A stretch of 64,000 nt of DNA from Bacteroidota bacterium (GTDB taxonomy: Bacteria; Bacteroidota; Bacteroidia; J057; JADKCL01): the NCBI GenBank assembly GCA_039024435.1, contig JBCCQH010000027.1:1963-65962 (forward strand), in the 5' to 3' direction. The position numbers and the translations under genes are program-made. The notes beneath the pieces were generated by a model, which saw only the letters and a list, made by a program, of their open reading frames with translations, was not told where the DNA came from and did no database searches. Shown here piece by piece: positions 4,629-44,700 of the stretch; position 1 is the first letter of the stretch; the number at the start of each line of letters is the position of its first letter.

Positions 4629-4634
4629 CTGACT

Positions 4635-28500: not shown

Positions 28501-28532
28501 AACTGTTTGTACCGCTATTTTCCGTCGAATAG
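25506..28532 (+). CDS. sensor histidine kinase: periplasmic two-component-regulator propeller repeats + TM + LytS/YehU-type kinase
   Basis: Signal peptide at the internal ATG at 25506. Repeated propeller motifs (MWFPTDAGVVRYDG, IWFLTLAGGLCYY, LWIGKDNGLFRY, LWIATNGQGLINY, LWVATKRGISCI) and a TM (FLAFGLLWVGI) follow. The kinase part shows LRAQMNPHFIFNSLNSI and LLQPYVENAIWHG. Confidence 0.82.
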   Translation: MVSKFPFWLLHASLLLLLNGPMNHLRAQVIAATHFDVEEGLPSNNVYRAMQDTKGFMWFPTDAGVVRYDGKTFEIFTREDGVTNNDVLGIYEDSQGRIWFLTLAGGLCYYYKGRIYHPKNHPALADGPKDSFVGMAFEDSRRRLWFATRSEGVYCLDGRKLIHYSMPYDVFKMGTGGFIEEEGRIYARLYGELWQIYPEEKCIREMDVGFTLQSANYSRWDLACALLCDFNGQLIRQSVRTDSVIVVSSRAPYKTYYTNLIGDTAIWLNNNSGGVEEFRMDPATAHWQSHRTLLENEMVNSVEVDREGNTWVTTRGNGVFMYRPQKIINVPGKDGEGIRSLFRRADGYYWMTTTDQHLARSRTTNLQDGYTVFNYFFGSEFNGFVELKDKRLLAYGPGAVLMKRFDFDSISLEQSFTPVHPLDDEPPIYESTEVNHIGGAGSIKKIYLSEENTIWIVSNRYFASFNYHSVDQYEIKRIFPGRFTSVTEDDGGTLWIGKDNGLFRYVDGELVSYQDKHTAFSTAPLDLAFSNRTGLWIATNGQGLINYDPRTGKIIAIGEEEGLAANLCQRIYLRGDEQLWVATKRGISCINLRGDMTNLPGTTINSMSREEGLIANEVFSLAFVGDTVVAATPKGLSIFHKKEIDYELPPPFTVLKNIRQGNQIYLPDESLSFSFQENSPIFYPAGISFGSGKEIDFRYRLDPIDDQWHETELPEIVYNQLPPNDYVFRLRSINKDGIISDSEARYTFKVRKAWWHTWWFRSGGIFLAFGLLWVGINWRYQQRNVRVEMQRKLVDAERKALRAQMNPHFIFNSLNSIQNFLARNDRKAAYTYLARFGKLMRNILENSDKTSVSVDEELTVLRLYLQMEALRADHRFQYAITLDDSIRPLNDRIPPMLLQPYVENAIWHGVMPLESGGRIDVHLQRENDGILCRIEDNGVGREAASRNRNQPGQVKVRSFGTRITEERLDLMNNRQKRNITVRITDLKNPEDQACGTRVELFVPLFSVE

Positions 28533-28597
28533 CCTTTGCCCGGATGATTCCAACCCGCAATTTTAAATGATCGCTTAATCAACAAAACCCAAGTAAA

Positions 28598-29353
28598 ATG
28601 TCAGAATTTACCGCCTTGATCGTCGACGATGAACGCAGCAACCGCGAATTTCTCACGGTAATCCTGGAAGATTTCTGCCCGGAAATCCGGGTGGTGGGCC
28701 AGGCTGATTCGGTGAAAATGGGATTGGAGCAGTTGGAGGAGCACGATCCGGACATTCTGTTTCTGGACGTTAAAATGCCGAATGGAGATGGCTTTCAACT
28801 CTTGGAACAAGTCGAGAAGCCACGGTTCCAGCTCATCTTCACTACCGCCTACGACCAGTACGCGATCCGATCATTCAAGTACAGCGCGGTCGATTACCTC
28901 CTCAAGCCAGTAGATCCCGAAGACATGGTCCGGGCGGTCAATCGCGCCAAGGAGCGCCTAAGCAAAGGCGAACTCAACGTACAGTTGGAAGCCTTGCTGG
29001 AAAATCTGCGGCAGCAAGGATCTGGCCCCCGTAAGCTCATCGTACCCGACCAGCACGGATTCGTTGTGATCCGCGTAGAGGAAGTCATCCGGGTAGAAGC
29101 CGAAGGGAATTATTCCACCATTGTGCTGACTTCTCGCAAGGAGATACTCGCCTCCAAACCAATCAAGTACTTTGAAAAGCTGCTGGAGGGGAAGGAATTT
29201 GCCCGAATCCACAACAAATACCTGGTGAACTTGGACCACGTAGTAAAGTACCTACGGCGGCGGCGGCCGGTCGTGGTCACCAGCGACGGAATGGAATTGG
29301 AAGTTTCGCGGCGAAAAAAAGAGGAGTTCCTAAAGCGCCTGATCGGCCAGTGA
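28598..29353 (+). CDS. LytR/AlgR-family response regulator (REC + LytTR)
   Basis: REC domain: ALIVDDE, LFLDVKMPNGDG. LytTR domain: IRVEAEGNYSTIVL, HNKYLVNLDHV. Confidence 0.88.
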   Translation: MSEFTALIVDDERSNREFLTVILEDFCPEIRVVGQADSVKMGLEQLEEHDPDILFLDVKMPNGDGFQLLEQVEKPRFQLIFTTAYDQYAIRSFKYSAVDYLLKPVDPEDMVRAVNRAKERLSKGELNVQLEALLENLRQQGSGPRKLIVPDQHGFVVIRVEEVIRVEAEGNYSTIVLTSRKEILASKPIKYFEKLLEGKEFARIHNKYLVNLDHVVKYLRRRRPVVVTSDGMELEVSRRKKEEFLKRLIGQ

Positions 29354-29359
29354 GGGGAC

Positions 29360-29887
29360 TCAATACGTCAAGTCGACCCGAGGCATCATGTTGCGGATGG
29401 CAATCACCTCATCCGGGGTAATGCGGTTCCGGGAGATGTCCAGGCGGCGCAGACGGCCCATTCCTCCCACCCAAACCGGCAAGAAAGTCAGGCGATTGCG
29501 CCCCAAATAGAGGACTTCCAGTTTGGAGAGTTCCCGGAATTCCGGAGGGATAAATTTGAGCTTGTTGCCGTAGAGGCTGAGCATTTGCAGGTGCTTCAGA
29601 TTTTTAATTTCGATGGGCAATGCTTTGAGACCGCAGTTGCTGAGGTTGAGCACCTGTAAGTTTTTGAGTTTGCCGATTTCCGGGGGGAGAGCTTTGAGTT
29701 GCTGATCCGAGAGGGACAGTTTGTACACCTTATCTGGATCGGCGAGGGCGGATTCCAAGTCGTAGAACCAGTTTTTATCGCGCAGTTGCGAGGCGCTCAA
29801 CAACCGGCCATTGCTGCCCTCATTTTGGGCCAGCAGCGGAAGACTCAACAAGGAAAAAGCAAAGAATAATACAGCAACTCTTTTCAT
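29360..29887 (-). CDS. secreted leucine-rich-repeat protein
   Basis: Signal peptide MKRVAVLFFAFSLLSLPLLAQ at the internal ATG at 29887, followed by LRR units (LQVLNLSNCGLKALP, LQMLSLYGNKLKFIP, LEVLYLGRNRLTFLP, LRRLDISRNRI). Confidence 0.72.
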   Translation of the reverse strand: MKRVAVLFFAFSLLSLPLLAQNEGSNGRLLSASQLRDKNWFYDLESALADPDKVYKLSLSDQQLKALPPEIGKLKNLQVLNLSNCGLKALPIEIKNLKHLQMLSLYGNKLKFIPPEFRELSKLEVLYLGRNRLTFLPVWVGGMGRLRRLDISRNRITPDEVIAIRNMMPRVDLTY

Positions 29888-30079
29888 ACAGTAAAATCGT
29901 TTATCGGCGGTCCGAGTGGGGACATTGCGCGACACCATGCGGCAGTTTGAAAATAGCATTAATCCCGAAGCGTGTTTATTCATTGCGGAACAATTGGCCC
30001 GGCCTGCCTCAACAGGAATACCAAAAATAACAAATCTCCGCAAATGCCCCAACAAAAGGGGAAATTGACGGGAAAAACG

Positions 30080-30137
30080 GATCACGCTTTCTTGGGGTCG
30101 ATCTGGATCTTTTCCGAAGATTGATCTACATTAGATC
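30080..30137. promoter_or_regulatory. cluster of five GATC sites (four as GATCT) in the divergent intergenic region at the island's left edge
   Basis: GATC at 30080, 30100, 30106, 30123 and 30134, i.e. five within 58 bp. The cluster lies 39-96 nt upstream of the ATG at 30176. Confidence 0.35.
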
Positions 30138-30175
30138 TATTCATTGCCTTTTCATTTAACTAAGGATTGATTGAC

Positions 30176-31828
30176 ATGCCGAATAAGTACAACCTCTACC
30201 GGGTAGAGGCATCCCGTTATGCCTCCCTGGTAAAAAGCTTGGAGGATGCCGGATTTTCAAAAACGGATGCCTCCGCCCAAACCCGCGGTTTCACCCTGGA
30301 TTTTTACCTGGGACACGACGCTCCCCGTACCCCGCGCTGGTTGGGGTTGTACCGGGCTTTTCTGCCCCCGGAGACGGTGCTCCGCAATCAAATGCACTCG
30401 GCAGCCCTGGTGATCCACAATGAACAACACTGCTACGTTGCCGCCATCGGCCGCGCCTTCCACCCGATCCAAAAAGTCTGTGACCGGGAATTTGGGCTGA
30501 ACCTGGCCGAACGGATCGCCAACCCGGAGGAAGTCAAACAGAAAGCTTCCCGCTTCTTCCAAAGCCAGCGGAGAAAATCCATCCAGTCTTTCCTGCGCAA
30601 CAATCCCTTTTCCTACGACAGCGGCGAGTCGGTCACCTACATGAAGGCCCGAACCCTTGACGCCAAATTGTGGGGCGAAAGGGCCGAATTCGGGGTTTCC
30701 TTTCGCTTCCACTCCCACCTGGATCCCGGACGCCTCGTCGAGCTGGTGGAAATCATCATCGGGAAACTGCAAGGCAAGGGCAATTTTGCCTTTCCCCGGA
30801 CCGAAGTGGTCAAAGACGTCGCTTTGCGCACGACCCTCGACCAGATCCTCGCCGGTCAGATTCTCAGCGATCAGGATGGCGCATCCGGCCACGTAGCGGT
30901 GGATGATTTCCAGTTGCAGGGCTGCGACTTTGTGTTCTACAATGCCCTGGATTTCCAAGCATTTGTGTACGGGCAAATGAAAGCCACCCTGACCCCACTG
31001 CCCAACCGCAGCCTCGCCGACCTCCGGGCATTCATTGCGGATCAGTCCCTGGACGAAGCGGAACTCCTGCGCCAGGTACGAATCCAGGTGGTCCGGGACG
31101 AAGGCTCCAAGCTCAAGTTCAAGCTCGCCGGAATCCTGGACATCGTAGTCGAACAGGGCAACAAAAGTTACTGCCTGATTTCAGGAGAATGGGTGAAATT
31201 TTCCCGCTCTTACCTCGACTTTCTCAACGAGCAAATTGCCGCGCTGGAGCACGAGAATGCCCACCTTTACGACTTCATCGAAGGCAAAGGTGAGCCCAAC
31301 CGCAAAGGCCAGAAGGGCGCTGCGGGCCGGGATGAAGAGTGGTTCATCGCCCAGGTCCGGAAGCATGATCCGAGCTATGAATCCTACCACAACACAGATT
31401 TTGCCCGGAACTTCAAGGCAAAAATGCTCCGGCACAAGGTAGAACTGATGGATCTGCTCCGCGAGAAAACCCTGTACGTAGTCAAGCGGGGGAAGACCCA
31501 AAAGCTCGGCTATGCCCTCGATCAGGCCATCGCTACGGTCAATCTCCTGAAGGACCTGCGGTTCAAACTCAAACTGCCCTGGGAAAAAGCGCGCCGCACC
31601 AAGACCATCCGTCCCAAAGTCATCACGGTCTGGCTCGTGGTCACCCGCAAGGCCCCAATTGCTCAACTTTCTGAACTCAATTCCACCATTCTCAAGATGA
31701 AACTCCTCGAGTTTAACCGCGTGGCCCGGGATGCGGGCTTGCAGCCGCAAATCCGGTTTTCCTACGAAATCGCTCCCCGGCACCAAAAAAACTATCCGCT
31801 GGCGCAATCGGTCATTGAACGCAGTTGA
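30176..31828 (+). CDS. hypothetical defence-island protein, possibly TIGR04141/DUF6119-like with a PD-(D/E)xK-like C-terminal module
   Basis: Length is ~550 aa. The C-terminal block VELMDLLREKTLYVVKRGKTQKLGYALDQAIATV resembles the E.cD......hhh.K......LSHL..Q pattern I associate with that family. Assigned from memory only. TTG at 30167 is an alternative start. Confidence 0.35.
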   Translation: MPNKYNLYRVEASRYASLVKSLEDAGFSKTDASAQTRGFTLDFYLGHDAPRTPRWLGLYRAFLPPETVLRNQMHSAALVIHNEQHCYVAAIGRAFHPIQKVCDREFGLNLAERIANPEEVKQKASRFFQSQRRKSIQSFLRNNPFSYDSGESVTYMKARTLDAKLWGERAEFGVSFRFHSHLDPGRLVELVEIIIGKLQGKGNFAFPRTEVVKDVALRTTLDQILAGQILSDQDGASGHVAVDDFQLQGCDFVFYNALDFQAFVYGQMKATLTPLPNRSLADLRAFIADQSLDEAELLRQVRIQVVRDEGSKLKFKLAGILDIVVEQGNKSYCLISGEWVKFSRSYLDFLNEQIAALEHENAHLYDFIEGKGEPNRKGQKGAAGRDEEWFIAQVRKHDPSYESYHNTDFARNFKAKMLRHKVELMDLLREKTLYVVKRGKTQKLGYALDQAIATVNLLKDLRFKLKLPWEKARRTKTIRPKVITVWLVVTRKAPIAQLSELNSTILKMKLLEFNRVARDAGLQPQIRFSYEIAPRHQKNYPLAQSVIERS

Positions 31829-31942: not shown

Positions 31943-33448
31943 TTAACGGATCAAGTCTGCGATCTGCCGGCCCAGCAGCTTGCTCTTGGTCCAGTAAAGG
32001 ACTTCCTCCATTCCTGGCCGCAGCTTTTGGGCCGACATTTGTTCCAACTCGTCGTGGAGTTGGCGGATGACGTTGTGCCGGGCTTTGGGGTCGCCGCGCT
32101 GCATCAGGCGGACCATTCCGTTTAGCACGCTCCGCGCAAAGGAGCGGGCCAGTCCCTTTTTGCGCAACCATTCGGCCCCAGCCTTCGCGCGGGAAATCAG
32201 GTGCTCGTAATCGCCGTCGTCCACCAACTCATAGGCGGTAACCACCGAAAATATCCGGGCCAAGCCTTGCAGGTCCACCCGCTGTTGGGTCAAAGGGTGC
32301 CGTTGCAATTGTTCGGCCCAGTGATTCGCCTGGCGAAAATCACCCGCCCAAAAGTGCGTCAGCAGCAGATTTGCCTGGAAGCCCAGCCGGGTCGAATCTA
32401 CGAGCTTGGTCCCGTAGCGGTCCAGCTTTTCCGGCACCGTCGCCATGAGCGCCAGGGCGTCATCGAGCCGCCGTTCATTCAGCGCGAGCAGGTGCCGGTA
32501 AAACAATCCCACCGAAAAGGCTTCGATTTCGTCTTCCTCACTCTCTACCGGTAGACTTTCCAATCGGTCCAGCACCGGGGCAAAAGCATCGTACCGAGAA
32601 TTGTTCGCCGCGCAGTGCAGGAAATTGCAGAGGAAAAGCCGGAACTCAGGGTACAACTCCTCCTGCTGGTGGGGATGCGCCTCCCAATGGGCCAGCAACT
32701 GGCGGTAGGCGGTAAATTCCTGCTCCCGCTGCTCGTGAAAACCCAGGAGAAAACAGCGCGATTGCAGGTAGAGCCGGCGCGCGGTGAATCCCGCGGGCCG
32801 GTAGTCGGGCTGCAGCGCAGGATGCTGGGCCACCGCTTCGATTTCGCGGAGGTGCTCGGCCGAAAGCTGGCTGAGGTTGAGGCGGATGTAGATGCCCAGC
32901 CGGTCGTAGAGTACTTCCTGTTGTTCCCGTTCTTCCCGGCGCGCCTTCAAGGCAGTTTGGGTGCTCAGCAGGTCCGCGAGGGCCTGCTGAAATTTTTTGC
33001 GCTGGTACAGCTTCAGGATGTTCCGTTCCAAGCGGTTGAGCTGCAATTGCAGGTCGATGAATTCGTACTCGTCCGCGATCTTGTGCGCCGTGCGGAGTTC
33101 CTTGCGGGCTGCGGAGACGATTCCGCGTTGGTGCAGGAGGTGCGCCCGGTCGAGGCACCGCCGGCACTGGTCGTACTTGTGATTTTCCGGAGCGTAAATC
33201 AGCAGGAAGTCATTCAGCAGATTCCAAAGGTAATTCTTCGCCGCGGCAAAACTGCGGTCTTCGAATTCGTCGGCGACCGCCGCTTTCAGCGCCTTTTCGT
33301 CGTAGTGTGACTGGCGCTGCATCTTGGTAAAGAGCAGCCAGTACTTTTTTTCTCCGTCGCGGTATTTCTGCGTGTACAGCCGAAAGTTCCGTTTCTCCGA
33401 ACGGCTCATCCGCTGAATCAATTGAAATAAATCGTCACTTGGCTTCAT
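31943..33448 (-). CDS. hypothetical all-alpha (TPR-like) protein
   Basis: 501-aa ORF with helical-repeat composition. N-terminus: LFQLIQRMSRSEKRNFRLY. No catalytic motif recognised. Transcribed divergently from the pAgo operon. Confidence 0.5.
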   Translation of the reverse strand: MKPSDDLFQLIQRMSRSEKRNFRLYTQKYRDGEKKYWLLFTKMQRQSHYDEKALKAAVADEFEDRSFAAAKNYLWNLLNDFLLIYAPENHKYDQCRRCLDRAHLLHQRGIVSAARKELRTAHKIADEYEFIDLQLQLNRLERNILKLYQRKKFQQALADLLSTQTALKARREEREQQEVLYDRLGIYIRLNLSQLSAEHLREIEAVAQHPALQPDYRPAGFTARRLYLQSRCFLLGFHEQREQEFTAYRQLLAHWEAHPHQQEELYPEFRLFLCNFLHCAANNSRYDAFAPVLDRLESLPVESEEDEIEAFSVGLFYRHLLALNERRLDDALALMATVPEKLDRYGTKLVDSTRLGFQANLLLTHFWAGDFRQANHWAEQLQRHPLTQQRVDLQGLARIFSVVTAYELVDDGDYEHLISRAKAGAEWLRKKGLARSFARSVLNGMVRLMQRGDPKARHNVIRQLHDELEQMSAQKLRPGMEEVLYWTKSKLLGRQIADLIR

Positions 33449-33650
33449 CTTTTTATCTCAAAAAAGCAAAATTTTGTTTCTCTCTGAACCTCTATTGATC
33501 TCTTCCGGAATATCCGCAATTCTGAGATAAAACGTGCGGTTTCCCCCCAAATTCTTGTCCGTGAACTTCTGATAATCCCAAAAAAATCTGGTGGTCTGCC
33601 GGATCCTTTTCCCGCTACTTGCCGGCAGTTAAACCACAAAAAATACCATT

Positions 33651-34079
33651 ATGTCTGACACGTATTCCATTTCCAACCACCAGCCCCAGTTCAATGCGGA
33701 CTTCAGCGAGTTGGAGATCCACAACCTCACCACGGGAACCATCGAAGAAACCTACGATCTCACCCAATCCACCAAAGTATCGGTCACCTCGGGCAATTAT
33801 GTCGTCGACCAAAATACCTGTACCGGGTGCTTCTCCCAATCTTTTGACGCGGACGAACAGGAAACGGTCTCGTTCAGCGGGGCCCGCATGGCCGGCGTGA
33901 CCATCATGCGACTGGAAGGAACGCTCAAGCCCCATTTAGAGTACGACTTTGATCTGGATGCCTGTCCGGTGTACCTGAAGTACGACGGCGACAAGCTCAA
34001 GGTCGAGGCCTCCCAGGACAGCGGTGGAGCCGGGTTTGATCCTTGCTGCGTGACCATTCGCCAGCTCACTTCTGCCTGA
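33651..34079 (+). CDS. hypothetical 142-aa protein, first gene of the pAgo operon
   Basis: ATG start, with the stop 6 nt before the next ATG. Beta-rich composition with several Cys (CTGC, DACP, DPCC). No family recognised. Confidence 0.5.
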   Translation: MSDTYSISNHQPQFNADFSELEIHNLTTGTIEETYDLTQSTKVSVTSGNYVVDQNTCTGCFSQSFDADEQETVSFSGARMAGVTIMRLEGTLKPHLEYDFDLDACPVYLKYDGDKLKVEASQDSGGAGFDPCCVTIRQLTSA

Positions 34080-34085
34080 TCGCCG

Positions 34086-35201
34086 ATGCTTCCGGAAAAT
34101 CCATCCTTGTCGACGATCTCGGAAGTGGCGGTTCTCCAGGTCCGCACCCCGGAGCACCCGGAGGAATTCCGCTCGGAATTCCCGGGCCTGGAGGCCGTCT
34201 TCCCGAACCCGGTCCGGGTCTATTGGCTGTTTCCGGAGATGGCGTCCCGCCCCCGGATCGCCCCGTTTTCCTGGCGGCACCTGACCATCCATCCGGTTCC
34301 CTTTCCGCGGGTGGATGCTCGGGTCCGCAGCGGGAACTGGGAGTGGCTGCAGGACCCTTTCCTGGTCGTTCCGGGAGACCGGCCCCGCTTCGTCATTCCC
34401 GCCCAAGCGACGGTCCAGGATCAACTGATCGTGACCGCGCTGGCCCGTGCCGCGGGCGCTTACGTGCGCATGGCCGGGACCTACTTTGAAGGGGGAAATC
34501 TGTTCTGGATGGGCCAGCACATCCTCGCCGGTCGCGATACCCTGCTGCACAATCCCGCACTCCTGGCGGAAGGCGACCTTTTCTCCACCCAGCGGCGAAT
34601 CGAAGCGGATTTCCGGCCGGCCGAGATCCACTGGATCGGGGATCACCTGACGCAGACCCGATCTCCCTGGCAGCCTTGTGGTGAGGCGGACAGCTTCCAA
34701 CCCTTTTTTCACCTGGATCTGTACGTGATGCCCGCCGGGAGAAACTTGCAAGGAAATGCCCGCGTTGCCGTGGCGGACCTGCCGGCCGATCTCACCGACG
34801 CCGATGGCGTCGCGGCGCAGGCGCTGGTCACCCGGTTGCGGCAGCAATTGGCCCGCACCGAGGAGCAAGTCCGCGCCTCGGCTGGCCCCGAGACCGAAGT
34901 GATCCGGGTACCCATGGTGCTGCGTTGCCACGCGTCCCAGCCCCGGGTGTTCTCCCCTTGCAATGGACTCTACGAATCCACCCCGGCGGGCGACCGGATC
35001 TTGCTTCCGGATTATGTCACCCACGCTCCGGTCCGCTACTGGCGACCGCGACTGAAAGCCCAAAAACGGCAGATTGAAGCCCTCTGGGAAGCCCGCGGGG
35101 CCAGCGTCCACTGGGTCACGGGAAACTATTTCGAGGACTCCGACAAGTGCGGGGCCTTGCACTGCCGCATCAAAATCATTCAACGTGTATCCACTTCCTG
35201 A
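34086..35201 (+). CDS. guanidino-group-modifying (pentein fold) enzyme-like protein, agmatine/peptidyl-arginine-deiminase-like
   Basis: The motif order matches the agmatine deiminase/PAD_porph layout: NWEWLQDPFLVV (W..D.GP-like), YFEGGNLFWMGQHILAGRDTLL (EGG...G), FFHLDLYV (H.D), SPCNGLY (SY.N-like), and C-terminal GALHCRIKI (GG..HC). Confidence 0.55.
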   Translation: MLPENPSLSTISEVAVLQVRTPEHPEEFRSEFPGLEAVFPNPVRVYWLFPEMASRPRIAPFSWRHLTIHPVPFPRVDARVRSGNWEWLQDPFLVVPGDRPRFVIPAQATVQDQLIVTALARAAGAYVRMAGTYFEGGNLFWMGQHILAGRDTLLHNPALLAEGDLFSTQRRIEADFRPAEIHWIGDHLTQTRSPWQPCGEADSFQPFFHLDLYVMPAGRNLQGNARVAVADLPADLTDADGVAAQALVTRLRQQLARTEEQVRASAGPETEVIRVPMVLRCHASQPRVFSPCNGLYESTPAGDRILLPDYVTHAPVRYWRPRLKAQKRQIEALWEARGASVHWVTGNYFEDSDKCGALHCRIKIIQRVSTS

Positions 35202-35203
35202 TT

Positions 35204-37054
35204 ATGAATTTGCAACAAAACTGGTTTCCCATTGTCTTCCGGGGAGATGCAATTCCCCTTTGGCAGACGGGACGGGCCAATGACCACAATGCTCCCACTC
35301 ACCGCACACTTCCAAACTGGACGGAAAATGGCAAGCAGTACTTCTGGCCCCCCGCTGGGCAGACGCTTCCCGAGGGAGGAACCCTCCAAAAACTCTCTCC
35401 GCACCTCATTCCGCAACTGACGGCGGAGATCGTCCGCTGGGCCTTGCTCCAGCTTCCCCATCCCGGTTTGGAGCGCGACGAGGACGAGATCATTTTTCCG
35501 CATCAAGGGTCCACCCTGCGCCTGGCGGTGATTCCTCCCGCCCCGCACAACACAGAATTCTGCCTGAGCATCCGCCCGGAAGATCCGCCCCCCGCCGCCA
35601 AAGAAGCTTACCGCCAAGTCCACGATGCCTTCGCCGTACTGGCGCAATCCCCCTTTACCAATGGTGCCGGCACAGAATTCACCCTGGAATCGGAGCGGGT
35701 GGAAGTCGAGTACCCCTCTTTTGCCCGCCCCCGACTCTATTTCCAGCCCAGCGGCATCGGCAATACCAATGACAAGTGGAAAGGCATCCTGAACAAAGGG
35801 CCCTTCAGCAAAGCCCACTTCCGCCACCGGGAACTGCACTGTCTGGTGATCGCCGGGGCCCGGGACGAGGGCGTGACCAAGCGGGCCCTCGGTGAACTGG
35901 AACGGGGGCTCCCGAGTGTGGACCACACCTCCGAGTTCCAGAGTCCATTCCCGAAAGGCTGGGCCGAACTCTTCCGGTTCAAAAGCTGGACCCCGTATTA
36001 CCTTTGGCTCCGCGGCCCCGCCGAGTGGGAGAATCTGGAACAACAGGTGCAGGAAGCGGTCCAGGCGCAGTGCCGGGAAGGACGGGAAGGCTTTGATCTG
36101 GCCTGGATCATGCCGCCGCGGGCCCATCGCAATGCGCCCCAGCTCATTGCCGGTGCGACGGCTACCCTGCTCGAATTTGGCATTCCGGCTCAGGTCTGGG
36201 ACCTGGATCCCTTCCGGCCCGGAGCCCCGCCCGGGAGCGCCGGCCAACGGCTGCGCGAACTCGCCCTCAAGAGCTACGTCAAGGTCGGGGGGATCCCCTG
36301 GCTGCTGCCGAGTGACCGGTCCAGCGACCGCCTCGTGGTCATCGGGGTGGGCAGCACCGAGCTTACGGAGGGTGTCGCTGGATTCTGCACCATTTTTGAA
36401 CGGGACGGGACCTTCCGCCTGGGCAATGCTTCGGCCCAGCCGAGCTTCCGGGACTGGCTGCGGGACCTGAGTGGTTTCGTCCGGGCCCAGGTGCGAAAAC
36501 TCGCCGATCAGGACAACTGGCAAGCGGGGGATCGGGTCGAGCTGGTCTTTCACCTTCCGGGGCCCGAATACTTCGGGCAGGTGGGCGCATTGCGGGAACA
36601 GTTGACCGGGGTGACCCTGGCCCAGTACCAGGTCTCGATGAGTTTTCTTGGGATCGACTACGCCCACCGGGACCGCCTCTGGGACTTGGAACGCCGGGGA
36701 CGGGGCGCAGAAAGCCGGGCCGCCTACATTCCCAAAATCGGTCAGGCCAGCATCGGCGGAGAAGAAGCCTGGTTGCAGTTGCGCGGAATCGAGCACGAGC
36801 GGGCCGAGGATCCCCCCTTGCGGATCTTGCTCCATCCCGACTCGGAAAACCTGGACCTCACCGAATTCACCCACCAGATATTCCGCTTTGCCGCCTTGTC
36901 CTGGCGCACCTACGGCCTGGAAGATCTGCCCGCGACGCTGGCCTACGGCAATGCCCTCACCGACCTGCTTTACCGCATCCACCAAGCGGGGCGCAGTACC
37001 GAGGTCGCCCGCGCCCTCCACAACTTTCCCCACCTCAAAACCTGGTTCCTATGA
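35204..37054 (+). CDS. short prokaryotic Argonaute (MID-PIWI), predicted catalytically inactive
   Basis: PIWI blocks: LKSYVKVGGIPWLL (36281-36301 encodes KVGGIPW), VVIGVGS, VFHLPGPEYFGQ, YAHRDRLWD, LPATLAYGNALTDL. The DEDX positions read G, L and N. The ATG lies 2 nt after the upstream stop. Confidence 0.8.
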   Translation: MNLQQNWFPIVFRGDAIPLWQTGRANDHNAPTHRTLPNWTENGKQYFWPPAGQTLPEGGTLQKLSPHLIPQLTAEIVRWALLQLPHPGLERDEDEIIFPHQGSTLRLAVIPPAPHNTEFCLSIRPEDPPPAAKEAYRQVHDAFAVLAQSPFTNGAGTEFTLESERVEVEYPSFARPRLYFQPSGIGNTNDKWKGILNKGPFSKAHFRHRELHCLVIAGARDEGVTKRALGELERGLPSVDHTSEFQSPFPKGWAELFRFKSWTPYYLWLRGPAEWENLEQQVQEAVQAQCREGREGFDLAWIMPPRAHRNAPQLIAGATATLLEFGIPAQVWDLDPFRPGAPPGSAGQRLRELALKSYVKVGGIPWLLPSDRSSDRLVVIGVGSTELTEGVAGFCTIFERDGTFRLGNASAQPSFRDWLRDLSGFVRAQVRKLADQDNWQAGDRVELVFHLPGPEYFGQVGALREQLTGVTLAQYQVSMSFLGIDYAHRDRLWDLERRGRGAESRAAYIPKIGQASIGGEEAWLQLRGIEHERAEDPPLRILLHPDSENLDLTEFTHQIFRFAALSWRTYGLEDLPATLAYGNALTDLLYRIHQAGRSTEVARALHNFPHLKTWFL

Positions 37055-38061
37055 TTTTGATCCCCGATTTTTTCGCCCGGACCGCGGTATTCTTGGAAGG
37101 AACCCATCCGGTGCAGCAAGCATTTCTCCACCATTTGTTCCCGGAATCGGTGCCCTTTCCCCACGCCACTGCCCCCGGCGCCATCAAAGGCAACAATGCC
37201 GACTACCCCAAAGTGGCCCTGCTCGGTTTCTGGTCCCTCTTCGCGCCGGAGTTTGCCGCGCGCTTTCGGGTGGCCTTCTCGCGCTACCGCTTCCGCAAGC
37301 TCGAAAGTGAGCACTACATCCTCGAAGATCTGGCCGCCCTGATCGGGATCTCCCAAGGTTTGCGGAAACACGGTGGCCCGGAAGACCACAAGTGGTGGAT
37401 CCGGCAAGTGGAACTCTGGCAACTGGCCTTTCCGGAAATGGAGGAAGTGCGGCAGTTCATCCGCTACCTCACCCAGGGAGGACTCCCGCCGGCCGGCCGC
37501 ATTTCACCGACCTACCTCGTCTACCTCGTGGTTCAGGAGCAGGACTGGAATCCGCAGTTTGCCGAGGTTGTGAGGCGATTTTACCTGCGCACCCGGAAGT
37601 TGCCGATGCCCGGGCCGGATGATCACTTTGGGCAAACGATGCTCAACCACTACGGTCTGGATGCCTGTTTCCGGCGCTGTATCTGGGAAGAAGACAAGAT
37701 CCTCACCTTGCAGCAAGCCGCGGTGGCCGGGGTTCACCACCGGGTAGAGGCCCGGGCCGTACGCCGGGCCAAGCGCCTGGTCGCCGCCGCTTACCTCCTG
37801 GGCATCCCCGGAATCGCGCTCTGCAACATCGCCTTCTTCTCGAATCTGGACGCGTTTGCCGAGTGGCGGAACCTTTGGGATGTCGCCGAAGACACCTTGC
37901 TTTTCGCCGGAGGCCCCTTTTCCGCCGCCTTGCTGTTCGTAAATGTGCTTTTGCAACTGGCGGGCCGCCACCCCCTTTCCCTCAAGTACGCCGGTCTGAC
38001 CCGGAGCCTGGCCGCCCGACTCACCAAACGGCACAAGCACCGCCTGGGCCTCGCCGGATAA
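37051..38061 (+). CDS. pAgo-associated protein with C-terminal two-TM hairpin
   Basis: ATGA overlap with the pAgo stop. The ~240-aa N-terminal domain is soluble. TM1 is LVAAAYLLGIPGIALCNIAFF (37777-37839) and TM2 is TLLFAGGPFSAALLFVNVLLQLA (37894-37962). The tail RLTKRHKHRLGLAG is basic. Confidence 0.6.
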   Translation: MILIPDFFARTAVFLEGTHPVQQAFLHHLFPESVPFPHATAPGAIKGNNADYPKVALLGFWSLFAPEFAARFRVAFSRYRFRKLESEHYILEDLAALIGISQGLRKHGGPEDHKWWIRQVELWQLAFPEMEEVRQFIRYLTQGGLPPAGRISPTYLVYLVVQEQDWNPQFAEVVRRFYLRTRKLPMPGPDDHFGQTMLNHYGLDACFRRCIWEEDKILTLQQAAVAGVHHRVEARAVRRAKRLVAAAYLLGIPGIALCNIAFFSNLDAFAEWRNLWDVAEDTLLFAGGPFSAALLFVNVLLQLAGRHPLSLKYAGLTRSLAARLTKRHKHRLGLAG

Positions 38062-38175
38062 TCCGCCGGTTCCCCGTTGATCCACCGAATCCTTCCCGGT
38101 GACCGCCTCGGTCGCCCCCAATCCCCATGTCTTTTCACCTCCAAAATTCCGGGCACAGGCCCGGACCGGAAACCT

Positions 38176-39246
38176 ATGTCATTTACCGTTAAAACATTCA
38201 CTTTGAAGCCCTTGAGAGCCGAACAACGCGAACACTTGGTGCGTCCATTTATGCGCTGGGTCGGAGGAAAGCAACGATTGGTCGGACAGTTGTTGAATTA
38301 TCTCCCTCCGGAGGACACCTATTCCCGCTACTACGAATTGTTCCTCGGGGCTGGATCCTTGTTCCTGGCCCGGAACTTCCCCAATCCGGTCCTGAACGAC
38401 CTCAATTTCCACCTGATCAATACCTACCAGCAGGTGCGCTCCCGTCCGGAAGCGGTTCACCGTTTGATCACGGAGCACGCCCGCCAACTCACCCGGGACC
38501 ACCGCCGCAACTTCGGCGGAGATTGGGAAAACTACCGGGGCAAGCGGGGCCGAGGCTCCTACTACTACACGGTCCGGGATGCCTACAACGCCCACCTTGA
38601 ACTGCCGGACGATATTTTTGATCCCGAACGTCTGCGGCAGGCGGCGCGTTTCCTCTTCCTGATCCATTCCAATTACAACGGCCTCTTCCGCGTGAACCAG
38701 CGGGGCGCTTACAATGTCCCCTTCGGCAAAAAACTGACCCACGTGCCGGACCTGGAACAACTCAATCGGATCAGCGCCCGGCTCCAAAACGCCCGGCTCA
38801 CCAATCACAGCTTTGAAGAACTGGAACCGGAAATCGGGGCTGGCGCCTTTGTCTACCTGGATCCTCCGTACCCGGATTTGCAGCCCCAGGATCTTTTTCA
38901 CCAGACAAACCGGTCCCAGAAAGCTTCCTTTACCGCGTACAATGCCCCGCCTTTTGAAACTCCGGAACACCAACAACTCGCCGCTTTTGCCGACCGCATC
39001 CGCCGGCGTGGGGCCAAAGTCATGGTGTCTATCGTGGAGCCTTTTGGCGTCCACAAAGCGGATCCCCGTCGAACCATGTTGCGGGAGTGGTATCCCGAAG
39101 CCCACTGGTGCTACCACCGAACGAAGTTCAAGCGCACCCTCGGTCCCCGCAAGGATCCCCAATTGGTACACGAGCTCATTCTCACCTCCTACGAGACGAA
39201 AAAGTGCCGCCCCGGTCACAAACTCAAAAGAAACCGCCGAAAATGA
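38176..39246 (+). CDS. Dam-family (D12 class) N6-adenine DNA methyltransferase
   Basis: Contains RWVGGKQRL, ELFLGAGSLF, NDLNFHLINTY, FRVNQRGAYNVPFG, and YLDPPYP (DPPY at 38860-38871). Start chosen at the internal ATG at 38176. Confidence 0.85.
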   Translation: MSFTVKTFTLKPLRAEQREHLVRPFMRWVGGKQRLVGQLLNYLPPEDTYSRYYELFLGAGSLFLARNFPNPVLNDLNFHLINTYQQVRSRPEAVHRLITEHARQLTRDHRRNFGGDWENYRGKRGRGSYYYTVRDAYNAHLELPDDIFDPERLRQAARFLFLIHSNYNGLFRVNQRGAYNVPFGKKLTHVPDLEQLNRISARLQNARLTNHSFEELEPEIGAGAFVYLDPPYPDLQPQDLFHQTNRSQKASFTAYNAPPFETPEHQQLAAFADRIRRRGAKVMVSIVEPFGVHKADPRRTMLREWYPEAHWCYHRTKFKRTLGPRKDPQLVHELILTSYETKKCRPGHKLKRNRRK

Positions 39247-41774
39247 ACTACTGGAAATGGAACACCGCCCTCGGGGATTTCTTTTTCCGGAATTCCCGCA
39301 AAGGCCAGCGCATCCTGTTTTACCTGGACCGCAAACTCATCGACCGGATCGGACAGGAACAAGGTCTCCCCGGCTGGGAAGATTTCTGCGCCAGCGTCCG
39401 CCAGGGTCCGCTGGAAGCATCCTGGCCCCACTACCTGCCGGAACTCGTGCAAGTGTGGTCCGATGGTCCCGAGTTTCACTACCCCTTTTTCCTGAATGGG
39501 ATTGCGGCCCTCATCCTGGCCCACACCGAACGCCCGCATCCCGATATGGGCTATTATGAATCCCTGGCCCATTTCGGGAAGCACCACCTGCATTCCACTG
39601 CCGATGCCCGGTCTGTGGTCCCACCGCTGGTCAATGCCTTTGCCCACATCCGGGAGTGGTCGGAAGCCTGGCCGGAAGTCCCCGGAACCTTCATCGACGA
39701 ACCGATCCAGGAGTACCGCTACGTGGGCCGCATCCGCCACCACGCCCTGATCTCCCCGGCCGAACGCCGCAATCTCCACCTGATCTGGCGGGACCTCACC
39801 CTAGAACCGGGACAGGGTCCCCACCTCGAATGGCTGATCTATACGCTGGAGCAGCACCCCGAATCGGCGAGCTGGATTCCGGGAATGCTGACCTTGTTCG
39901 GGCACCGCAGTCCTGAGGTACGGAAGGTGGTCCACCACTGGCTGCTGGAAGAACTGCGCACTTGGGATGGCAGTGCCCCGCCGACGCCCCAGTTGTACGA
40001 GCCGCCTTTTGAGGAAGGATTTGCCCTGCGGATGTCTTGGAGTCGCCGGGTGGGGATGGGCCTGCGCTTGCACCACCCCGACTGGAGCGGAGAGGTAACC
40101 CTGCGCCGGAAAGAAGCCCAAATCACCCTGCAAATCGGGGCGGATGGCTGGTCCCGGAACTTTACCTTTCCCGGAGGTGGAATAAATTTTACCGCGGAGG
40201 CCCCGGAGATCCGGGTACAAATGATCCAGCCCGTCCCGCGGGAGCTGTCGGCGTCTGTGTTTTCCTACTACTACCCCGCCGATGCCCTGGGCACCCTGGG
40301 ATCGGATTACATCGGGCACGACCGGATGCTCCGGGAACGGCCGCTGCAGCACTGCTTTCCGGCGCGTGAGCTGGCGTCCTGGCGGCAGTGGGCAAAAGAA
40401 CACCGGGTAGAAAACTGGCGGGCAAAAGAAGCTCCGGCGGGATTTCCTCCCGGCTGGAAATTCTACGCTGCCGAGCAGATTCCCCCGCCGGAAACTTCTC
40501 CTGGCGCACACCTGCCCCGGGTTCGGCCCCCGGCTCCGCTGAGCAAAGTATTTCCGCTTTCGGCCGCGCACCGCACGCAACAGTGGCAGTATGCCGCGGA
40601 TGGTCGCCGCTTGTCGCCTCCGGAAAGTGGAATCGGCCATTTCTTCCTGGATGGAGTAGAGCACCGGTGCGTGGCAACTTGCGAATGGACCCTGGACCTC
40701 TCGGGCAAAGCGGATCCGCCCCCACCGGAAGCGGATCGGCTGGCCCCTCTGCTGGCGAAAAGGCAGGCGGTTATCCCCTTTCGGCAGTACTACGATCTAT
40801 TGCAAGCGATTGCGGCGGAGCGGGGCGAGTCCCTGGACACCGTCGAAGCGCGCTACTACCGGCGCCTGACGGCGGCTTTGGGGTATTTTTTCGAAGATTC
40901 CCCCCGGCAGCAATTGCAACTGGCCCCCCCGGCGTTTGCCCTGTTGCCGGACAATCACCACGCAATCCGGGCTTCGCTCACCGGGATCTGGACGGCGGAC
41001 TTGCGGAACATCGTGGTACAATGGTGCCAGGATCCGGCGCACGGACTTCAATTGGCGTGGGAGGAATCTACTGATCCCTACCTGCCCGCCGCCGGGTTCC
41101 TTACTTGTTTCCGCTTGGACTACCTGGTCGCCTTGCACGCCGAATTGGAGCGCCGCTTTCCGGGGGTGGTCGGTCGGTGGACCCCTTGTTCCTATTCCCA
41201 AGCCCTGATCGAACGGCTCACCGTGCCGCGCCACCGCGGCTGGTTCAGCGAAGCGGAGGGATTGCGGAAACAAGTGGGTTCACCGGAAGCCCATTTCCTT
41301 TCCCCGGAAGACTACCGCTTCATCCCCCAAACGGGCGCGCCCATCTTCCCGATGCTCACCCGCAGCTACCACGAATGGTACGGCTACCCGATTTATACCT
41401 GGTGGGAAAGTGAGCAACAAGGTCACGACTGCAACGGCAACTGGGCGGTTTGGCGGCTGCTCCACGCCCATGGGGTTCCGGTCCTGTTCTCGGATCACCG
41501 CTGGAGCGACCACCTGTTGCTTCCGGTCCACTTGCCGCTGCCGGCGCTGGTGCGGCGGGCCCTCACCATGGCTTCTGGACTTCCGGGGAGTCCGGAAACC
41601 CATCCGCTTCCCGGCGGGCCGGAGCTGACCTGGCAACGCTACCCCAACATTCGCTACCCGATTCGGCGCCACCTGCCGCGTTTGCTTCTGGGCGCCACCG
41701 GTGTTTCCGCCCCTGAGTCGTTTTTCCACCGTCTCCATCCCCAACCGCACAACCATGGACCAATTAATCAGTAA
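39243..41774 (+). CDS. hypothetical 843-aa protein (position-equivalent to Druantia DruH or DISARM DrmE; no motif recognised)
   Basis: ATGA overlap with the methyltransferase stop and a 20-nt overlap with the downstream helicase start. Composition is coding-like. No domain recognised by eye. Confidence 0.45.
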   Translation: MNYWKWNTALGDFFFRNSRKGQRILFYLDRKLIDRIGQEQGLPGWEDFCASVRQGPLEASWPHYLPELVQVWSDGPEFHYPFFLNGIAALILAHTERPHPDMGYYESLAHFGKHHLHSTADARSVVPPLVNAFAHIREWSEAWPEVPGTFIDEPIQEYRYVGRIRHHALISPAERRNLHLIWRDLTLEPGQGPHLEWLIYTLEQHPESASWIPGMLTLFGHRSPEVRKVVHHWLLEELRTWDGSAPPTPQLYEPPFEEGFALRMSWSRRVGMGLRLHHPDWSGEVTLRRKEAQITLQIGADGWSRNFTFPGGGINFTAEAPEIRVQMIQPVPRELSASVFSYYYPADALGTLGSDYIGHDRMLRERPLQHCFPARELASWRQWAKEHRVENWRAKEAPAGFPPGWKFYAAEQIPPPETSPGAHLPRVRPPAPLSKVFPLSAAHRTQQWQYAADGRRLSPPESGIGHFFLDGVEHRCVATCEWTLDLSGKADPPPPEADRLAPLLAKRQAVIPFRQYYDLLQAIAAERGESLDTVEARYYRRLTAALGYFFEDSPRQQLQLAPPAFALLPDNHHAIRASLTGIWTADLRNIVVQWCQDPAHGLQLAWEESTDPYLPAAGFLTCFRLDYLVALHAELERRFPGVVGRWTPCSYSQALIERLTVPRHRGWFSEAEGLRKQVGSPEAHFLSPEDYRFIPQTGAPIFPMLTRSYHEWYGYPIYTWWESEQQGHDCNGNWAVWRLLHAHGVPVLFSDHRWSDHLLLPVHLPLPALVRRALTMASGLPGSPETHPLPGGPELTWQRYPNIRYPIRRHLPRLLLGATGVSAPESFFHRLHPQPHNHGPINQ

Positions 41775-44700
41775 AGAACCGATTTCCGCTTTTGAAGCCA
41801 TCCGGGACAAATTCATCTTGTACCTGCAGACCGCTTACCGGACCCGCTTCCGGTCCCTCGAACAGGAAAAGGAAGCCCTGCTGAAGCAGGCGCCCAACCT
41901 GTTTCAGTGGCCCTATGTGGAATTACAGCCAGACTACGCTTCTTCGGGAAAAAAGATCCCTGAACTCAGCCTCGAAGATCTGCCCGCGCTGGGAGCGTTG
42001 CTGGACCGGTTCAAGCTTCTAGTGGGCGGCAATCTCTTTTCGAACAAATACGCCCTCTACACCCACCAGTACGAGATGCTGTGTACCGCCCTGAGCGGTC
42101 GCCACAGCCTGATCACCTCGGGCACGGGCTCCGGAAAAACCGAATCGTTTTTGCTGCCCCTGGTGGCCCAGTTGGTGAAGGAGTCGGGTCACTGGGGACC
42201 GATCAACCGCCACGAACTGGGGGACCGGTCCTGGTACGAGCAAGAAGGGGCAACGGCCCGGGCCCATCCCTACCGCGCCCACGAAACCCGTCCCGCCGCA
42301 GTCCGGGCCTTGGTGGTCTACCCGATGAATGCCTTGGTGGAAGACCAGCTCACCCGCCTGCGCAAGGCCCTGGACGGTCCCCGGGTGTGGGACATCTACG
42401 ACGATCCGGAAGGATTTGCCGGGAACCGCATCTACTTCGGACGCTACATCGGGCCGACGCCGGTCTCCGGAACCGAAGAGCCAGAAACCACCGGCGACTC
42501 TGGAGATGCTACCCGGCAGGTCAACCGCAAGTCAAAGTCATTTGCCAACCGCAGCCGCATCCAGGCGATGCGCAGCGATTACGAAAAGATCACGACTTTT
42601 CTCAGTCAGGAATTTATCCCCGAAACCCTGCGGGACGAGGACATCCAATTCACCGTGCCGGCTTTTCCCGAGTGCCGCCAGGGGGTGGAGCTTCCGGTCA
42701 GTGCAGAAATGCGCACCCGGTGGGACATGCAGGCCACGCCCCCCGATATCCTGATCACCAACTTTTCCATGTTGAGCATCATGCTGATGCGGGCGGTTGA
42801 AGCGCCGATCTGGTCCCAGACCCAGGCCTGGTTTCACGGGGAAGACCTCACGGACCGCGATGCGCTTTCCCGGGAAGTCGTCCTCCAGGACCGCATCTTC
42901 CACGTCATCATCGATGAGCTGCACTTGTACCGCAATTCCGAGGGCATGGAAGATGCGGCCCTGCTGCGGAGTCTGCTCCTGAGCCTCAACATGATCGATG
43001 CCGACGGCCAACTGCATCCCCGGGTCCGGATCCTCACCTCGAGTGCTTCCCTGGGCGACGGCCAAGAAACCCAAGACTTCCTCGCGAAGTTTTTTGGGGT
43101 ATTTGCCTCCGGAGAGGCGAAAACTCCGGCTTTTTCGGTCATCAACGGTGATTCGCGCCCATTTGACCGGGAGGTCCCCGCAACGATGCCCCACGCCGAA
43201 GAACTGGTGCGCCTGGCGGAACTGCCCGGATTTCCCGAGCCCGATCCCGGAGAGGTCGCGGATATTTTGCGGAAAATGGTCGCGTCGCCGGTGGATCACG
43301 CTGCTTCGGGTCCGGAATTGATTCGGATCTGGTACGCCGAACACCAACTGAAAGACCGCATCAAGGCGACCTTTCAACGGCATCCCCGACGGGAAGATGA
43401 GCCGGCGACCATTCCCCGGAGCGTAGAAGTGCTGGGTCAAAAGTGGTTTCCGAAGCTTGCTGATTTCGCAGCGATCAAGGCCCTGAAGGCATTTTTCTAC
43501 CTCCGGGGACGCCTGCACGACCGCGAATACCCCAGCCTGCGGTTCCACTACTTCTTCAAGTTCATCCAGGGACTTTGGGCGGAAGCCCAACCCAATCGCG
43601 GGACCAAGCCCGAACCGGGCCACCACCTCAAGGAGCAGAAGCCGGTCGGGCAACTCTCCTACACCCCGCGCCAACTGGCCCCGGGGAGCAACAACCGGAT
43701 GTTTGACTTTTTGCGCTGCGAAGTCTGCGGTACGGTATTCCTCGGCGGACAAAAGAAATACATCTCCCCGAACAACCACGCCGAGTGCCAGGTCACCATT
43801 TCCAGTCCCGATCTCGAAAGCCCCCTGGGCAATCTCCCCACGATATCCCGCCAAAACTACCTCGATTACGCAGTGTTTTGGCCATTTTCGGATGCCCTCG
43901 ACGATGAGGTCGATTCCCAAAAGCCCTACCTCAAGCGGGACATCCCCATGGACTGGAACCAGCGGATCCCCAACTCGGGCAAGCGCGACCGGGGCACCTG
44001 GGTAAAGGCCAGCCTCAATACCGAGCTGGGGATCCTAAGCGAGGGCACAGCAATCGGCGATGCGTACGCCAATGGCTACTGGTTCCAAGTGCGACGCATA
44101 AAGAATGGGGCGCTCGTCCACCAGCGGGATCCTATGAAAATAGCACTGCACGCTGCCTTGCCCAACGCCTGTCCCTGTTGCAAGCAGAATTGGGGCAATC
44201 GCCAGTTTGTGAAATCTCCCATCCGGTCTTTTCGCACGGGTTTTGGCAAGATGAATCAGGTTTTGCTCAAGGAGCTGGCCTACCAGCTCGACCACGATCC
44301 CGACCAGGGACACTTCCGCAAGCTGGTGGCCTTTTCCGACTCCCGGGAAGATGCAGCCCGCCTGGCGTTTGACATCGAAAACCAGCATTTTCTGAATGTG
44401 GTGGAGGAGTACATGATGGAAATCTTCCAGCACCACCGGAAGGAAGAACAGGTAGAAGAAGAGCAGTTGCGCGGCATCCGCAAGCGGCAAATCGAGATGC
44501 TGGACCGCCTGCAGCGGGAGGAGGATGGCCCGGAAATCAAGGAATGGGCGCAAGCAAATCCCGACGCCTACCGGGAGGTCGCACAACTCCACAATTGGAG
44601 CAAAAGTTTCCTCGAAGAAGAGCAGGCCCAAGCCCAAGCCCAACGGGAAAAGTGGCAGCGCAAGGTGGATGGGCCCATTGAAGAGGTGCGGGTGGTGCCG

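Follow-up and report, generated by a model that had tools for sequence, protein, structure and literature searches.

The 64,000-nucleotide stretch of Bacteroidota DNA analysed here (the window, on contig JBCCQH010000027.1) carries a tightly packed plus-strand operon of four genes at positions 33651 to 38061, in which a prokaryotic Argonaute (pAgo), predicted to be inactive, follows a pentein-type enzyme and precedes a membrane protein. The pair formed by the pAgo and the membrane protein is a derived form of known long-B pAgo systems, joined to an uncharacterised deiminase cassette. This cassette consists of the divergent gene g0, the small gene g1 and the pentein gene g2, and it most likely is autonomous, with a history separate from that of the pAgo module. 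In the explanation that we prefer, with confidence that is about even, the pAgo and the membrane protein encoded by g4 act as a sensor–killer pair, regulated transcription, and perhaps an accessory activity, come from the cassette, and the pentein is not an effector docked on the pAgo.

The first open reading frame (ORF), g1 (33651-34079, plus strand), encodes 142 amino acids (aa) and is separated by a 6-nt gap from g2 (34086-35201, plus strand), which encodes the 371-aa pentein. After a further gap of 2 nt the pAgo gene (35204-37054, plus strand) encodes a PIWI protein of 616 aa from its ATG, and it shares a 4-nt ATGA overlap with g4 (37051-38061, plus strand; 336 aa). The junction sequences thus agree with the ORFs, sizes and spacings that an earlier note on this DNA had described. 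The start of the pAgo is placed at the ATG at 35204. The resulting N-terminus, MNLQQNWFPIVF, lines up with that of the homologues and with the L-N motif that long-B pAgos conserve; a longer, GTG-initiated ORF from 35147 was rejected as the start on account of the same alignment. The order g1-g2-pAgo-g4 is unchanged on four other distinct contigs at 38-56% aa identity and in a fifth locus (L009) at 25-30%. Because this order is kept across diverged contigs, the genes are considered real. The earlier note had asked whether the pentein and membrane-protein genes are conserved neighbours of this pAgo, and both are kept in six of six loci of the pAgo clade. No plus-strand terminator-like site was found between g1 and the methylase gene downstream of g4.

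The Argonaute and its membrane partner

The 616-aa protein matches the PADLOC model pAgo_II (Class II) at 9.2e-65 and the NCBIfam model of Rhodobacter-type Argonautes at 6e-30. Its nearest structures in the PDB are RsAgo (1.6e-27) and EcAgo (3.8e-24), both inactive and of long-B type, AfPiwi is matched at 2.6e-5, and no short-pAgo structure is found among the PDB matches at E<1. The blocks on which the earlier note had based its PIWI call (KVGGIPW, VIGVGS, HLPGPEYFGQ, HRDRLWD and LPATLAYGNAL) are all present in the translation, and the assignment as an inactive PIWI protein holds. The label of a short Argonaute, however, has to be given up. The pAgo was aligned as six clade members with 64 full-length long-B pAgos from metagenomes. 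The L2-MID-PIWI part is colinear with that of the long-B proteins (437 aa against a median of 433, about 24% identity), and the first ~75 residues are kept within an N-terminal region that totals ~180 aa. The L1/PAZ stretch measures 104 aa against a median of 220 in long-B pAgos, corresponding to a loss of ~116 aa, and the conserved long-B residues of this stretch are absent. Because the L2-MID-PIWI part is long-B-like and the L1/PAZ stretch is shortened, the alignment identifies the protein as a PAZ-deleted Argonaute of long-B type and not as a member of the short clade. Among long pAgos, 'truncated variants without PAZ' have been noted (PMC6299218). The SPARTA, SPARSA and SPARDA systems combine a MID-PIWI pAgo with an APAZ effector, whereas the pAgo of the window keeps its N-terminal region of ~180 aa and groups with long-B proteins. 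No APAZ, TIR, SIR2 or nuclease model of Pfam or PADLOC matches g1, g2 or g4.

Judged by its active-site residues, the pAgo is catalytically inactive. Compared with what we take to be the Piwi consensus, two Asp positions read G (in VIGVGS) and L/P (in FHLPG). At conserved PIWI motifs the pAgo shares G381/G383 and F449-H450 with the 64 long-B pAgos, and the DEDX tetrad is missing from all long-B pAgos (Ryazansky et al., PMC6299218). The MID domain is aberrant as well. Long-B pAgos 'almost always' carry a Tyr-Lys (YK) motif (PMC6299218), and in the NPYxxxK site of the 64 aligned proteins Y is found in 100% and K in 92%. In the six clade members the two positions of this site (residues 313-319 of the pAgo) are occupied by I/F/L/L/A/gap and T/Q/Q/K/R/E, respectively, and the later pocket residues Q330 and K360 are retained in the clade. 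Because the YK dyad is lost, binding of the guide 5' end may be unusual or non-canonical.

Hydrophobic segments of transmembrane type are absent from g1, g2 and the pAgo and are found only in g4, at residues 242-264 and 282-303 (Kyte-Doolittle 19-residue mean of ~2.0). They form the C-terminal transmembrane hairpin that had been described for the 336-aa protein. The PADLOC model Aga_Helical-REase (Class II) matches all six g4 homologues at 7e-8 to 8e-6, over residues ~17-136 in the N-terminal half only, and the REase part of the model is unmatched. A hidden Markov model (HMM) of g4 finds the bAgaN-like nucleases that accompany five long-B pAgos, matching them in their N-terminal domain with conditional E-values of 1e-8 to 1e-11. 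In L060 and L074 it also matches a protein of 316 aa that carries a transmembrane hairpin and is paired with a full-length long-B pAgo, with no cassette nearby. The partner type of L060 and L074, together with the g4 type, is a second family of transmembrane effectors for long-B pAgos, distinct from bAgaM. The 316-aa partner, with its g4-like N-terminal domain and hairpin, is encoded at 8123-9073 in L060 and at 1075-2025 in L074, and its pAgo has 758 aa.

The ATGA overlap between the pAgo gene and g4 is kept in six of six loci and represents the strongest coupling in the operon. CryoEM (cryo-electron microscopy) of EcBPAN has shown that bAgaN uses its N-terminal domain to dock on target-bound EcAgo, at the interface of MID and PIWI, which lifts autoinhibition (PMC13535254), and the toxicity of BPAM depends on its transmembrane region (PMC10620215, supplementary data). 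By analogy, g4 is likely to be a membrane effector recruited by this pAgo, with the transmembrane hairpin replacing the nuclease. The bAgaN-type N-terminal domain has been said to be absent from transmembrane effectors (PMC13535254). The domain content of g4 and of the L060/L074 partner suggests that the docking domain is not restricted to nuclease effectors. The link of the g4 N-terminal domain is drawn from the PADLOC model and from our own HMM matches to a bAgaN subfamily other than that of EcbAgaN, and the g4 profile has no match in the PDB.

Three described systems resemble this pair in part. In BPAM (EaAgo-EabAgaM of Elizabethkingia anophelis; Song et al. 2023, PMC10620215), an inactive long-B pAgo likewise lies directly upstream of a partner of ~300 aa that is soluble in its N-terminal part and ends in a transmembrane hairpin, the host also belongs to the Bacteroidota, and the same abortive-infection logic is expected. 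However, the partner family differs, the pAgo of the window lacks PAZ and the YK dyad, and its locus has two additional genes upstream as well as a divergent regulator. Homology of g4 to bAgaM was considered and rejected: hhalign of the g4 family against EabAgaM gives a probability of 0.07%, and EabAgaM matches the PADLOC model PDLC02409 at 1e-139 whereas the g4 homologues do not. In BPAN (EcAgo-EcbAgaN; PMC10620215, PMC13535254), the pAgo is of the type closest to ours, namely RsAgo/EcAgo, and the N-terminal helical domain of g4 weakly resembles a bAgaN subfamily, but g4 has a transmembrane hairpin instead of the C-terminal PD-(D/E)XK nuclease and no similarity to EcbAgaN itself was detected. 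SiAgo-Aga1-Aga2 of Sulfolobus islandicus is also a multi-gene operon in which an inactive pAgo is combined with a membrane effector encoded at the end. SiAgo belongs to the short pAgos, however, whereas the pAgo of the window is of long-B descent, and g1, g2 and g4 have no PADLOC match of the Aga1 or Aga2 kind.

The pentein enzyme and its cassette

A search with the single g2 sequence finds no match in Pfam, NCBIfam, PADLOC, PHROGs or the PDB, and a six-sequence profile gives nothing meaningful against the PDB; the signal comes from a 55-sequence profile and from a fold search. Close relatives number five among 5.8 billion clustered proteins, and an exhaustive profile search collects 390 relatives at E<1e-3. 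The Pfam family PAD_porph is matched by 19 of the 55 best relatives (best 3.5e-11). The 55-sequence profile matches the PAD-like structure from Chlorobium (PDB 1xkn) at 1.5e-7 and also the agmatine deiminase of C. jejuni, whose GSLHC aligns with the GxLHC motif of g2. An AlphaFold2 (AF2) model of g2 is mediocre, with a predicted local distance difference test score (pLDDT) of 59 and a predicted template-modelling score (pTM) of 0.59. Foldseek nevertheless returns near-exclusively penteins at the top for this model, including 6b10 (C. jejuni agmatine deiminase, 1.2e-5), DDAH-1, PAD2, eIF6 and ArgZ, with TM-scores of 0.3-0.4 that are low because the model is mediocre. A tblastn search finds a Vibrio plasmid gene annotated as 'agmatine deiminase family protein' (4e-13, 24% identity). 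The sequence link of g2 to the family is transitive, through its relatives and its profile, with this tblastn hit as the direct match.

Residues D90, H209, D211 and C360 are invariant in the 55 sequences and belong to the motifs W-x-Q-D-P, E-G-G-N, H-L-D (H-x-D) and G-A-L-H-C (G-x-L-H-C). The Cys of GALHC is residue 360, encoded at 35163-35165, the codon position that had been given for it earlier. The pentein call for the 371-aa protein is thus upheld by the fold search, the profile and the invariant residues, which identify g2 as a pentein of the guanidino-group-modifying kind, probably of agmatine-deiminase/PAD_porph lineage. Because its catalytic set is invariant and its family ties are to penteins, g2 is predicted to be enzymatically active; its substrate may be either a small molecule resembling agmatine or peptidyl-arginine. 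It resembles the agmatine deiminases and PAD_porph proteins in its pentein fold, as judged by Foldseek, and in the four motifs that align with their catalytic Asp/His/Asp/Cys set. It differs from them in that it lies below Pfam detection, with 21-25% identity to those relatives that reach the PAD_porph model, and in that its type is always linked to a gene for a RusR-like tetratricopeptide repeat (TPR) protein and usually to a small partner protein.

The genomic distribution of g2 separates it from the pAgo. A scan with the g2 profile, with one genome per species, gives 53 loci. The constant neighbour of g2-type genes is a homologue of g0 and not a pAgo, and a g1-like small protein is usually encoded between them. 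The g0-g2 arrangement occurs in ~21 Bacteroidota loci, and ~15 of them are without any pAgo. The cassette stands alone in L011-L015 between ECF (extracytoplasmic function) sigma/anti-sigma genes and panC, glgA, DUF4270 and glmS, and in L018, L019, L053 and L055 it lies among ordinary genes, with neighbours that include AspRS, a C25 peptidase, an amidase and a tyrosinase. A further context, seen in L008 (two copies), L010 and L016, has genes for NARF and a SMODS cyclase starting 0-15 nt behind g1-g2. Next come, in L010, genes for a MkoA-like helicase and an AAA ATPase of IetA-like type and, in L008, a gene for a superfamily 1 (SF1) helicase of Pfam AAA_11/AAA_12. The pAgo context, comprising the clade of the window and L009, is the one in which g1-g2 are followed by pAgo-g4 and Druantia-like genes. 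At 80 other long-B pAgo loci, g0, g1 and g2 are found in none. Because the cassette occurs without a pAgo in ~15 loci and is missing from these 80, the pentein does not appear to be the docking effector of the pAgo. The length, architecture and invariant residues of g2 are the same in pAgo-linked and pAgo-free loci, with no added docking domain. The more distant penteins of L020-L059 have no conserved neighbours and hence are uninformative on function.

Several individual loci deserve mention. L008, from one Bacteroidia metagenome-assembled genome, carries tandem cassettes at 1242-4652 and 5554-8906 with a SMODS-type nucleotidyltransferase after each; NARF and an SF1 helicase of 1291 aa are additionally encoded after the second. 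In L055 (7458-15672) the pentein gene lies near a gene for a 1348-aa C25 gingipain-like peptidase, and in L019 (5996-8522) an S8 subtilase is encoded between g0 and g2. This proximity to secreted proteases recalls the pairing of PPAD with gingipains in Porphyromonas and may be a coincidence. L012 is a 7.5-kb contig (CALRTD020000212.1) binned as Synechococcus. Its cassette is flanked by the same anti-sigma/panC/glgA genes that are found in L011 and L014, both of them Bacteroidota loci, and the contig is probably mis-binned.

The divergent gene g0 (31943-33448, minus strand) encodes a 501-aa RusR(BT2802)-like, all-alpha TPR protein, which is a candidate signal-sensing transcription activator of the divergent operon. 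It matches the NCBIfam model BT_2802_fam over its full length at 9.5e-27, far below the family cut-off. Its AF2 model (pLDDT 87) is an all-alpha TPR superhelix, and Foldseek matches it to TPR proteins, including Rap/NprR-type receptors and domain III of MalT, with TM-scores of 0.5 or less. Distant relatives of g0 adjoin unrelated metabolic operons, including leucine-biosynthesis and lipid genes, as is expected of a regulator family. RusR has been proposed as a positive regulator of the ribose operon in Bacteroides (bioRxiv 10.1101/574913). The intergenic region between g0 and g1 contains a non-coding block of 35 nt at 33562-33596 (plus strand), TGAACTTCTGATAATCCCAAAAAAATCTGGTGGTC, which is a candidate operator or promoter. 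Most of this block is conserved in L001, L004, L005 and L006, whereas the proteins encoded on either side share no more than ~50% identity. A related half-site, GAACCTCTA (GAACYTCTR), lies at 33486-33494, and the motif has only two matches in the window. A sigma-70 promoter scan was uninformative, as expected for Bacteroidota.

The small protein g1 has no significant match in Pfam, NCBIfam, PADLOC or PHROGs. The genes for its homologues (136-171 aa) immediately precede the pentein gene in 16 aligned loci, and the proteins have no invariant residue. The protein is soluble, and our reading of its sequence is that it is beta-rich. A lipocalin-like assignment was dropped because the Pfam GH43_C match (E 0.018) is below threshold. 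A role as a citrullination substrate with an invariant Arg was rejected as well, since the Arg loop (DLRD / RLEG / GRG) is not invariant and one member lacks the loop.

The conserved block and its flanks

The conserved unit is wider than the four genes. Upstream it includes g0 and a DUF6119 gene, and downstream a D12 methylase, a DruF-like gene and DruE; the nine genes from DUF6119 to DruE occur in the same order in all clade loci that are long enough, and the outer flanks differ. The methylase gene (38176-39246, plus strand) encodes a DruM-like N6-adenine DNA methyltransferase of the D12 class (Pfam MethyltransfD12, 2.8e-39; PADLOC MTase_II, 7.7e-59), with a presumed start at the ATG at 38176, and it lies ~70-180 nt after g4 in all six loci. 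The gene for the DruF-like protein (39243-41774, plus strand), whose start was placed from the start of the match and from homologue gene calls, matches the PADLOC models DruF4 (3.2e-20) and DruF2 (1.2e-16) in its N-terminal part and DruL4 (5.4e-9) in its C-terminal part. It is followed by a gene for a DruE helicase of Druantia type II/IV-like character (41755-47994, plus strand; 2080 aa), which matches PADLOC DruE2 over its full length with 1404 bits and is present in every clade locus long enough to show it. In L009, at 25-40% identity, the methylase and the DruF-like gene still follow g4. By these model matches the segment from 38176 to 47994 is a Druantia type II/IV-like module, in which a separate DruG was not found.

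At the left end of the co-conserved block, a gene at 30167-31828 (plus strand) encodes a DUF6119/TIGR04141 'sporadically distributed' protein (Pfam, 1.8e-30; NCBIfam TIGR04141, 3.2e-23). It is found at the same position, with 49-53% identity, in L001, L004, L005 and L006, the four loci that extend far enough, and no relevant mention of the family was found in papers. The left flank of the island (25326-30085) encodes a hybrid sensor kinase (Reg_prop/Y_Y_Y), a LytTR response regulator and a leucine-rich-repeat protein. Right after DruE, a gene on the minus strand (47995-49539) encodes a 514-aa protein with a C-terminal DUF4357 that matches the phage family phrog_12629 at 3.6e-48; the island may end here on its right side.

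Base composition changes along the block. The G+C content is 0.60-0.63 across g2 to DruE (34000-48000) against 0.53-0.56 in the flanks. The genes g0 and DUF6119 are flank-like, and the content rises from ~0.56 to ~0.63 at g2/pAgo and remains high through DruE, a pattern that would fit the acquisition of cargo behind an older cassette. No tRNA genes are present in the window. A phage or plasmid origin of the operon was considered and rejected, because no relative of g2 is found in the viral contigs of IMG/VR, the operon has no PHROGs match, and the plasmid match to g2 is single and distant.

The proposed composite operon and its meaning

In the preferred explanation, the locus would be a composite operon made of two modules of separate history. 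In the first, g0 would sense a signal and activate the divergent promoter, g1 would be a small soluble protein, and g2 would be an active deiminase-type pentein with a Cys-His-Asp set. In the second, the inactive, PAZ-less pAgo would act as a nucleic-acid sensor and recruit g4 through its bAgaN-like N-terminal helical domain, whereupon g4 would kill or arrest the cell through its C-terminal transmembrane hairpin; the outcome would be abortive infection, as in BPAN and BPAM. The second module and the Druantia II/IV-like module would have been captured downstream of g2 and would be transcribed from the promoter controlled by g0. The pentein would act upstream of the pAgo or in parallel to it, within the cassette's own function; it might, for instance, deiminate g1, some other protein or a small molecule at a guanidino group. 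We infer the regulation by g0, the docking of g4 on the pAgo, the killing at the membrane and the substrate of g2 from homology and genomic context. Gene sets of comparable arrangement are CapH-CapP and CapW/BrxR, which are small, bear a regulator and adjoin or precede unrelated defence modules, as the cassette does. To our knowledge they have no sequence relationship to the cassette, being composed of a helix-turn-helix repressor and a protease or of a WYL protein. The cassette has a pentein and a TPR protein instead, and it also occurs without any defence genes.

Several observations weigh against this explanation. All members found of the pAgo clade without PAZ and YK (six of six, down to 25% identity) lie directly behind g1-g2, and such an absolute association possibly reflects direct functional dependence as well as it does shared transcription. 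The MID Tyr-Lys dyad, 92-100% conserved in long-B pAgos, is missing from this pAgo, which may not load guides canonically and could need proteins of the cassette. The homology between g4 and bAgaN is weak, and hhalign gives no signal when the g4 family is compared with EcbAgaN as a single sequence. In addition, the role of g0 as a DNA-binding regulator is suggested by distant homology to a protein that is itself a putative regulator.

It is possible, although unlikely, that the two modules have no functional link. In that case g0-g1-g2 would be a physiological cassette, for example for the catabolism or modification of guanidino compounds, and the defence genes would have landed 3' of it and then been co-inherited. 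The housekeeping surroundings of the cassette in L011-L015, L018, L019, L053 and L055, the distant g0 relatives beside leucine-biosynthesis and lipid genes, and the rise in G+C at g2/pAgo that continues through DruE would all agree with such a history. However, the g2-pAgo junctions (2 nt here, -4 to 16 nt in four of the five other loci, 71 nt by gene call in L004) and the g2-NARF junctions (~15 nt or less) are very tight and kept over deep divergence with no terminator, two unrelated defence-type modules are joined in the same orientation directly after g2, and the pAgo clade is found nowhere else. A bolder proposal, in which we likewise place little confidence, is that the cassette is a modular immune component, with a TPR sensor and a peptidyl-arginine or guanidino deiminase that would gate or execute defence and would have been joined repeatedly to pAgo-transmembrane or SMODS/NARF modules; deimination (citrullination) would then be a chemistry new to prokaryotic immunity, on which the pAgo clade with its degenerate 5'-end pocket would depend.

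The earlier note had proposed the pentein as the partner and effector of the pAgo. The adjacency on which this rested is real, but the effector role is not favoured. It is decidedly unlikely that the pentein, possibly with g1, is the true effector or signal-processing enzyme, in which case a target-activated pAgo would turn on g2 to deiminate a guanidino metabolite or an arginine in a protein, and g4 would add membrane damage. Such a role would account for the finding that g2 adjoins the pAgo in six of six clade loci over 25-55% identity, with a gap of 16 nt or less in five (2 nt here and -4 to 16 nt in four others; 71 nt by gene call in L004), with all its catalytic residues kept. It would also fit a pAgo clade that always comes with g1-g2, lacks PAZ and is aberrant in its MID pocket, and a gene set that the earlier note could not match to a described pAgo system and that has no model in PADLOC, Pfam, NCBIfam or PHROGs. 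On the other side, g2 accompanies g0 and g1 without a pAgo in the ~15 loci described above, several of them in housekeeping contexts. The pAgo-linked g2 proteins have no extra domain, no docking domain of APAZ or bAgaN type is found in g1 or g2 by Pfam or PADLOC models whereas g4 has a putative one, and a pentein is found at none of the 80 other long-B pAgo loci.

It is very unlikely that the nine-gene block is one integrated super-system in which the pAgo and Druantia-like modules cooperate, for example with pAgo-guided recruitment of DruE or with shared self/non-self marking by the methylase: the order of the whole block, kept between differing outer flanks, the methylase and DruF-like gene that persist after g4 in L009, and the absence of Druantia, methylase and DUF6119 homologues near all 80 other long-B pAgo loci would fit it, but the ~70-180 nt between g4 and the methylase are unlike the overlaps within each module, Druantia and long-B pAgos are each catalogued as stand-alone systems in PADLOC, BPAN and BPAM work as two-gene systems (PMC10620215), and the pattern is explained by a defence island whose parts were inherited together within one lineage.

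Neither g1 nor g2 is described by a model in the four databases that were searched for the gene set, and a literature search for a deiminase or pentein, citrullination or agmatine deiminase in connection with pAgos or anti-phage defence gave nothing relevant among the papers it covered. The locus bears on the biology of pAgos in several respects. A long-B-derived clade that has lost PAZ and the Tyr-Lys dyad and yet is under selection raises the question of what such pAgos bind. The fusion of a putative bAgaN-type docking domain with a transmembrane hairpin points to swapping of effectors on a common adaptor domain. If g2 takes part in defence, deimination of guanidino groups would add a new chemistry to immunity. 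Otherwise, the cassette would still be an uncharacterised, recurrent regulon of the Bacteroidota, the promoter of which has been borrowed by defence genes.

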